From: a virus
Reading direction: 5' to 3' (one strand)
DNA length: 27,750 nucleotides
UHGV virus genome: UHGV-0085994
Shown: positions 26,519-27,709 of the stretch, in pieces
Position numbering within the stretch: position 1 is the first letter of the stretch
Layout: each line of letters opens with the position of its first letter
Translations under genes and position numbers: made by a program
The notes under the pieces: model-generated
Seen by the model: the letters and a program-made list of their open reading frames with translations, nothing else
Told to the model about the DNA's origin: nothing
Databases searched by the model: none

Positions 26519-26524
26519 TGAAAC

Positions 26525-26559
26525 CTCGTAGAATCTGGTGTGTTAACCGATTCTACGAG
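26525..26559. repeat. 11-bp perfect inverted repeat (CTCGTAGAATC / GATTCTACGAG, 13-bp spacer) immediately upstream of the tail operon RBS
   Basis: Directly visible; could be a protein-binding site or 5'-UTR hairpin. Confidence 0.5.
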
Positions 26560-26671
26560 TAGTCATTTGTTCATTGAGTAGGAATATTGTTGTCTGGGGG
26601 GTAATCAGTGTAGGTGGAATGAGGGATATGATATGGTTATCACATAATCAGGTTGTTTTGAGTAAAACAAT

Positions 26672-26698
26672 AAAACGCCCTTTAATGGGCGTTTTTTT
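26672..26698. terminator. rho-independent terminator (hairpin AACGCCC-TTTAAT-GGGCGTT plus T7), bidirectional context
   Basis: Directly downstream of the 270-aa minus-strand ORF. Confidence 0.6.
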
Positions 26699-26727
26699 AA
26701 AACTTAAATTGACTATCCTTTCAAATA

Positions 26728-27540
26728 CTATTTTAATTCTATGTAATTTTTAAATTCTCCCTCATATTTATACATGATGCTATCAAATCCTTCCATTACA
26801 TCAACGAATTGTTGTGAACATTCCGGCTTCCAAGGCGTACACTTACGAACCATATCCATTTTTTTCTTATCCTTCGTTGTATCGACTAAGGATAGGTACC
26901 CTATAAAATTCATCATCTGAACAGGATCTTGATTTGTGAATATATATTTGACGTTTTGCTTAGTAGGCGAAAAAGAATCAAAAGCAGGGAACATATATTC
27001 ACCAGAAAAAGAGAGTGCAGCATCAATGACGTCTGTTGCAGGAGTGCAGTTGCTCAGAATTGGCACTAAGCTAAAATTAGCACCTGAGCACACTGCATAT
27101 ATATCATCCCCTTTTTTTAGTTTTAACAGAGAGTCTTGCTTTGAATCCAATATTTTCAATTTGATATAATTTAGTGGCGTTGCATTTTCCCCTGGAGTAA
27201 ATAACTCTACAATTGGTTTATTATTCACCATTCTTATGGATTTTATTTCACCATACACAATTGGAATTGTGTTCCATTTTTCCTGAGCAGCAAATTCATT
27301 ATCTTTAAAATCATTAACCAACTCAGATGGCAAATGATAACCAAATTGATTGTTCATTGCTTTCGAAGCAAATCCAGACAAATAGAATGCCCTTACTAAA
27401 TCATAATCTTTCTTTGAGGTAGAAAGCCAATCTGGCAATTTATTATCAGCTATCGCGCTTCCAGCAAAAATAGCACAACAAAATGTTATTACATTAAATA
27501 ATTTCATTTTCCATTCACTCATTAATCGGTTTAAACTCAC
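26728..27540 (-). CDS. hypothetical secreted/periplasmic protein (N-terminal signal peptide), AT-rich cargo gene
   Basis: 270 aa; hydrophobic signal MKLFNVITFCCAIFAGSAIA; region strongly AT-rich compared with the phage backbone. Confidence 0.55.
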   Translation of the reverse strand: MSLNRLMSEWKMKLFNVITFCCAIFAGSAIADNKLPDWLSTSKKDYDLVRAFYLSGFASKAMNNQFGYHLPSELVNDFKDNEFAAQEKWNTIPIVYGEIKSIRMVNNKPIVELFTPGENATPLNYIKLKILDSKQDSLLKLKKGDDIYAVCSGANFSLVPILSNCTPATDVIDAALSFSGEYMFPAFDSFSPTKQNVKYIFTNQDPVQMMNFIGYLSLVDTTKDKKKMDMVRKCTPWKPECSQQFVDVMEGFDSIMYKYEGEFKNYIELK

Positions 27541-27709
27541 TAATTAATTCACCAAGACTATTTGGGTATGCTTTATAAATAACATACTCCGAAGAGCCAT
27601 CTGAATATTGGTAAGCCCCATAACAGATCAGTTTATTTATTCCTTTCTGAATAGTTTTTTGATTATAAGAATCAACCACTGTTATTCCATATGACGGTAA
27701 TGACTCCAA
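27515..27709 (-). CDS. hypothetical ORF fragment, 5' end disrupted by IS1 (only in-frame start is a TTG inside the IS1 terminus)
   Basis: 64-aa ORF with no internal Met; its 3' end overlaps the start of the 270-aa gene. Confidence 0.3.
   Translation of the reverse strand: MESLPSYGITVVDSYNQKTIQKGINKLICYGAYQYSDGSSEYVIYKAYPNSLGELISEFKPINE

Follow-up and report, generated by a model that had tools for sequence, protein, structure and literature searches.

A leftover sim operon cut short by IS1 in a P1-like prophage or plasmid that is rearranged and defective

What is an AT-rich pair of genes doing between the tail genes of a P1-like element and an insertion sequence? The pair lies at the right-hand end of the window, by which we mean the whole stretch of 27,750 nucleotides that was analysed, and the first-pass annotation had taken it for a horizontally acquired two-gene cassette encoding a secreted effector, immunity or surface-exclusion-like protein and partly destroyed by IS1. 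The sharp drop in base composition that it described is real: the GC content of 0.333 over 26596-27695 is the lowest of any 1.1-kb stretch in the 27.75-kb window (mean 0.465, sd 0.033), a z of about -4, and GC3 is 0.29 in the larger gene, simC, vs 0.47-0.50 in the tail genes pmgC and tub. The second-lowest stretch of the window is hsdS (GC 0.385), which belongs to a type I restriction-modification system at 10514-16459 (hsdM 520 aa, hsdS 382 aa, hsdR 1038 aa) that sits in the P1-like backbone and is common to many P1-like plasmids.

Identity of the AT-rich stretch and its place in P1

When 26519-27750 was compared with phage records by megablast, it matched phage P1 (NC_005856 46577-47759; also AF234172/3) at 99.0% identity over 1183 bp and M34382, the original 'sim region' sequence, at 97.9%. 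At the matching stretch, the P1 record lists simC (superimmunity) and simB (putative accessory function); SimA, too, is labelled merely 'putative accessory'. P1-like phage-plasmids are 99.9% identical to the region and are found in 128 of 5426 complete E. coli genomes, counting those with at least 80% query coverage, and in these plasmids PGAP names both genes 'hypothetical protein'. The window as a whole has no match in any of the searched collections. Judging by this identity and by the damage mapped below, the AT-rich stretch is almost certainly the remnant of the phage P1 sim (superimmunity) operon, its 5' part destroyed by IS1. The region is the leftover sim operon of a P1-like prophage or plasmid that has been rearranged and is defective, and the locus itself is already described biology, having long been known in P1 as a superinfection-exclusion locus.

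Describing the locus as a two-gene cassette understates it, as sim comprises three genes, simA-simB-simC, whose products all carry predicted signal peptides in P1. The gene order in P1 is immI (c4-icd-ant), simA-simB-simC, terminator, and then LPsit-pmgC-tub-pmgB-sit, with immI, annotated as c4, icd and ant1/2, on the simA side. The left neighbours of the operon (terminator, LPsit and pmgC), the predicted signal peptide and the simB stop/simC start overlap are all as in P1, and the pmgC side is conserved and identical to it. The immI side, in contrast, gives way to IS1 and then to the end of the window: simA, PsimA/PsimB and the immI neighbours are missing from their position, and simB is cut at codon 52. 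The features of the region are collected in Table 1.

Table 1. Features of the sim remnant and of the insertion sequences around it, in window coordinates
Feature	Position	Strand	Basis or remark
IS26, complete, 820 bp	20392-21211		terminal repeats GGCACTGTTGCAAA at both ends; IS6-family transposase at 20444-21166
Late promoter LPsit of pmgC-tub-pmgB-sit (-10 TAGAAT, -22 box)	26550..26568	-	transferred from the P1 annotation
Intrinsic-terminator hairpin	26672..26695	-	terminator scan; 30 nt past the simC stop
simC, intact	26728..27507	-	259 aa from MKLFN; 99% nucleotide identity to P1 simC
Divergent OB-fold domain of PF12869 (tRNA_anti-like) type, putative	27046..27324	-	SimC residues 62-154; one conserved Cys pair
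SimC Sec signal peptide MKLFNVITFCCAIFAGSAIA, predicted	27448..27507	-	n-, h- and AXA c-regions read by eye
simB remnant	27515..27696	-	codons for SimB residues 53-111 and stop; aligned with P1 and pTHO-010-4
IS1 right end, running off the window	27696..27750	-	23-bp IRR at 27696-27718; identical junction in NZ_CP034659.1

The 270-aa protein with a signal peptide that had been noted is an open reading frame of that length with a predicted signal peptide, but the starts annotated in P1 and in relatives lie further downstream. The frame at 26728..27540 (-) is the maximal mechanical ORF, opened by a GTG at 27540. The ATG at 27522 (264 aa, MSEWK) is the start of the P1 annotation and overlaps the simB stop as ATGAGTGA, and the ATG at 27507 (259 aa, MK(L/I)FN) is the start used by PGAP and by every relative recovered. 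Over the P1-annotated length, the product is identical to P1 SimC (YP_006511, 'sim region ORF2' of M34382) at 263 of 264 residues, the single difference being K for N at residue 220, and it is identical to WP_000765490 of P1-like plasmids. It also matches PHROG 14355 (E 2e-191), a PHROG of unknown function. The predicted cleavage falls between MKLFNVITFCCAIFAGSAIA and DNK, i.e. before DNKLPD; the signal peptide is kept in two relatives, P0002 and P0005, and appears as a low-confidence N-terminal helix in the structure model. The suggestion of a secreted immunity- or exclusion-type product thus agrees well with the match to P1 SimC, while nothing supports a 'secreted effector'. High-scoring ArgR-box-like sequences have been predicted in P1 simC (nt 47270) and at the simA/simB junction (nt 47906; PMC2409434), the latter of which is absent from the window.

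Downstream of simC, the stem of the intrinsic-terminator hairpin is 9 bp long, 5 of its pairs being GC, and a T-rich tail comes after it. Its RNA folds at -14.5 kcal/mol, with a z of -3.9 vs shuffles, so that scan and fold both bear out the earlier call of an own terminator at 26672-26698. With an A-run before and a T-run after the hairpin in the window, the terminator could be bidirectional; in the P1 counterpart, the T-run of the + strand is broken and reads GTTGTGTT. Beyond it, LPsit, identical in sequence to that of P1 (L001 4032-4050), marks the sim module off from the tail genes. Immediately upstream of the pmgC start is an 11-bp inverted repeat (26525-26535 / 26549-26559; CTCGTAGAATC / GATTCTACGAG) that shares sequence with the LPsit -10, and P1 has the identical repeat. 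An Rfam scan of 26300-27750 returned only sub-threshold matches, which were driven by the terminator.

But could the stretch be something other than a native sim operon? If it were foreign cargo carried by an IS1 composite element, an unknown secreted effector or immunity pair, its position in a window enclosed by two inverted IS1 ends and its GC content far under that of the backbone would be expected. However, P1 and more than 120 complete P1-like phage-plasmids carry this sequence in one piece with pmgC and immI and without an IS1 at the site, IS1 interrupts the cassette instead of flanking it, and the 27.6 kb between the IS1 ends is itself P1 backbone (cre, c1, pac and tail genes). We regard foreign cargo as extremely improbable, the comparison with intact P1 and pTHO-010-4 having ruled it out, and the earlier reading as unidentified cargo falls with it: this is the native P1 sim operon at its normal position beside pmgC. 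That SimC is a structural or morphogenetic protein of the adjacent tail operon has a probability that we consider virtually nil, even though simC lies on the same strand, immediately upstream of pmgC-tub-pmgB-sit. The terminator and LPsit stand between simC and the tail genes, and the predicted signal peptide speaks against such a role. In a genome-wide CRISPRi screen of P1, the genes simA, simB and simC, annotated as superimmunity, were non-essential, their knockdown leaving P1 plating unchanged, whereas pmgC, tub, pmgB and sit were essential (PMC10695390), which argues that SimC is not structural. The protein is therefore conserved in P1 without being a P1 structural protein, and the earlier statement that the genes are unrelated to the adjacent tail genes stands.

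The sim region also varies among P1-like plasmids, which likewise counts against a structural role: in a survey of 77 P1-like phage-plasmids, simABC was one of eight variable regions, linked to low G+C (PMC9603915). We found a further case in a variant P1-like element (contig L004, Logan SRR14689322, 209-3109), in which simC is 83% identical and simB conserved, a 107-aa membrane protein takes the place of simA, and two genes (215 aa; a 158-aa YfjT-family protein) are added between simC and pmgC. The differing gene content around simC and simB confirms the sim site as a variable accessory slot.

The IS1 junction and the missing 5' part of the operon

The 23-bp terminal inverted repeat of IS1, GGTAATGACTCCAACTTATTGAT, occurs exactly at 27696-27718 (+) and at 31-53 (-), where 0 occurrences are expected by chance. 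The window is thus flanked by two exact, inward-facing IS1 right-end repeats, whose copies are mutually inverted and enclose 27.6 kb of P1-like DNA. At the right-hand junction, simB homology ends after ...CCATATGACG at 27696 and IS1 starts there with GGTAATGACTCC..., which places the IS1 end in simB codon 52; the window covers 55 bp of the element. Partial destruction by IS1 had been correctly recognised, the 5' end of simB being replaced precisely at the exact IRR.

What is missing can be read from intact relatives. The search for an intact upstream gene in related plasmids, which had been proposed as a check, led to pTHO-010-4, the closest intact allele, which carries a SimB of 111 aa and a SimA of 52 aa. 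Intact SimB has its own predicted signal peptide (MRRSGFMLIRLFLVLSFLTFNVFA / DEV), as does SimA. In the window, the N-terminal 52 residues of SimB are gone, start codon and signal peptide included, and residues 53-111 remain with 2 substitutions vs P1. The 64-aa ORF at 27515..27709 (-) opens with a TTG at 27707-27709, inside the IS1 inverted repeat, and its first 5 codons are IS1 sequence; by these alignments and the exact IRR, the truncation of the upstream ORF by IS1 and the position of its TTG had been rightly described. The idea that this ORF lacks a genuine start outside IS1 does not hold, as the intact relatives with their 111-aa simB show that it does possess one, and the TTG start is an artefact of mechanical ORF calling. 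Missing here are the 5' half of simB, simA, the predicted promoters PsimB and PsimA, and the immI region, and a complete simA-simB-simC operon with promoters is not present in the window. Neither SimB nor SimA has a PADLOC, NCBIfam or Pfam match to defence or superinfection-exclusion families. SimA (52 aa; L001 5336-5494) matches only the first 41 positions of the 213-position PHROG profile phrog_3933, and SimB (L001 4997-5332) also matches positions 24-116 of the 276-position profile phrog_13054; the two may therefore be shortened forms, or relics, of phage proteins that are longer and secreted.

How did IS1 come to lie here? A single public record shares the identical IS1::simB junction: NZ_CP034659.1, a 454-kb plasmid of E. 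coli ATCC 98082, which matches all 1232 bp, including the 55 bp of IS1, at 100% identity; the junction was not found in GTDB representative genomes. The element in that plasmid is a complete IS1A with its transposase on the - strand, directed toward simB/simC. On its far side lies not simB but a chromosomal IS1-flanked segment (a partial gene, ysgD and corA; L002 9178-12404), so that the event there exceeds a simple insertion, which suggests IS1-mediated cointegration or rearrangement. When the missing simB-5'/simA segment was searched for in E. coli genomes, ATCC 98082 was not among the 60 matches listed. For the window, a simple insertion would predict a 9-bp duplication and then ATAATATTTCGTTATATTC... 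beyond IS1, and any other sequence there would mean that an IS1-mediated deletion or rearrangement took simA and immI. The 9-mers flanking the two IS1 ends of the window show no 9-bp target-duplication relationship, and the left IS1 junction, which adjoins the region downstream of cre, is absent from complete E. coli genomes. IS1 prefers AT-rich DNA, which is probably why it landed in sim. In two P1-like plasmids, NZ_CP142784.1 and NZ_CP075461.1, ISApl1 lies inside the sim region, so that, taken with the IS1 seen here, the AT-rich sim module draws different insertion sequences.

IS1 is not the only element to have rearranged this P1-like DNA. The IS26 copy truncates sit, the gene for the tape-measure/transglycosylase, to an ORF of 1055 aa, vs 3423 nt (about 1140 codons) in P1, and places it next to the ppp end of the cre-c1-pac block (54-20391), from which it is separated by tens of kb in intact P1-like plasmids. 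With sit cut by IS26, the prophage is defective. In this it differs from NZ_CP034659.1, where sit is intact and adjoined by other P1 tail genes.

Fold and action of SimC

In P1, Devlin et al. reportedly defined sim as a superimmunity determinant in 1982, Kliem and Dreiseikelmann are said to have shown in 1989 that it causes superinfection exclusion, and Maillou and Dreiseikelmann reportedly purified its product as a processed protein in 1990. In published descriptions of intact P1 sim, SimC is made as a precursor, exported and then processed. It permits P1 adsorption and blocks an early step of infection, generally described as the transfer of superinfecting DNA into the cytoplasm, and thereby excludes P1 as well as virulent or clear mutants of P1. 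P1 can grow without the locus. The phenotype was reportedly traced to cloned sim ORF2 (simC), and it is weak when intact sim is present in single copy.

Sim has been grouped with T4 Imm and P22 SieA as blockers of phage DNA translocation (PMC9952470). According to the literature, it resembles T4 Imm/Sp and P22 SieA in being a phage envelope protein that allows adsorption, keeps DNA from the cytoplasm and acts with a narrow spectrum against relatives (PMC9952470; PMC13128918). However, these proteins show no sequence or family relationship to SimC in Pfam, NCBIfam or PADLOC. SimC is predicted to be a soluble protein of the periplasm, unlike Imm and SieA, which reside in the inner membrane.

The SimC family is tiny: a word search gave 4 clusters, and among 1.84 billion, 15 representatives had an E of 0.001 or less. 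SimC itself reaches the threshold of no Pfam, NCBIfam or PADLOC family. It does match PF12869 over residues 62-154 with 19.1 bits (E 0.001), under the gathering cutoff of 23.5. Three relatives of SimC score above this cutoff (P0012 with 53.8, P0015 with 43.7 and P0014 with 25.9 bits), P0014 being a full-length-like SimC relative. In an AlphaFold model built from an 8-sequence alignment (mean pLDDT 74.8, pTM 0.52), the helix of the signal peptide is followed by one helix (32-54), further helices (60-78), a beta barrel (83-156) and a C-terminal domain made of helices (158-257). The five-stranded OB barrel of this model superposes on a PF12869 family structure; single-sequence AlphaFold gave no usable fold (pLDDT 31). 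PDB sequence searches with the profiles of SimC and of P0012 returned nothing credible. By calculation, mature SimC has 239 aa, 27.4 kDa and a pI of 5.4, and it has four cysteines: a conserved pair lies in the barrel and another, CTPWKPEC, in the C-terminal domain, which fits an oxidised, disulfide-bonded periplasmic protein. From model and profile, we infer for mature SimC a PF12869-like OB-fold barrel set between a helix at the N-terminus and a helical domain at the C-terminus. Compared with PF12869 proteins such as the putative nucleic-acid-binding lipoprotein of Klebsiella pneumoniae (PDB 3f1z), SimC has a predicted cleavable signal peptide and no lipobox, and adds N-terminal helices and a C-terminal helical domain of ~100 residues with the second Cys pair.

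The modelled architecture suggests that SimC may bind some periplasmic component of the incoming DNA-delivery apparatus. A more specific version, which we consider unlikely, is that SimC would hold up DNA transfer at the inner membrane by binding part of the P1 conduit in the periplasm, either the emerging end of the DNA or Sit, the tape-measure/transglycosylase, once this has been ejected.

State of the remaining simC copy

Is the simC copy in the window still in use? A standard promoter scan found none upstream of simC on the - strand, and a relaxed scan found a consensus -10 TATAAT (27667-27662) with a poor -35 in the simB remnant. Here, simC could be transcribed only if polymerase reads through from IS1, where insAB' has the same orientation, or starts at weak promoter-like sites in the simB remnant. 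With the predicted native promoters gone and only read-through or weak sites left, we infer that exclusion by this copy is probably weakened or silent. That simC is still a working exclusion gene, expressed by insAB' read-through or from a junction or internal promoter, with SimC alone sufficient, is possible, though we doubt it. The ORF is intact and one residue off P1, insAB' is directed toward it, the -10 of the relaxed scan is of consensus sequence despite its poor -35, and the role of cloned simC as determinant would agree with the accessory rating of SimA and SimB in the P1 record. Against this stand the loss of both partner genes together with the predicted native promoters, the lack of any promoter in the standard scan, and the weak phenotype of even an intact single-copy sim. 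IS1 is, moreover, classically polar on genes downstream. A weakened or silent simC is therefore the reading that we prefer, though with far less confidence than we place in the identity of the locus.

The pair of 'hypothetical proteins' in P1-like phage-plasmids can now be labelled simC and truncated simB, and the IS1 in sim, together with the IS26 cut in sit, marks this prophage as a degraded remnant. The OB-fold assignment of SimC, new if modest, provides a testable handle on the mechanism of Sim exclusion. If SimC does bind the P1 conduit in the way considered above, many uncharacterised phage and bacterial 'tRNA_anti-like' lipoproteins might act as similar exclusion factors.
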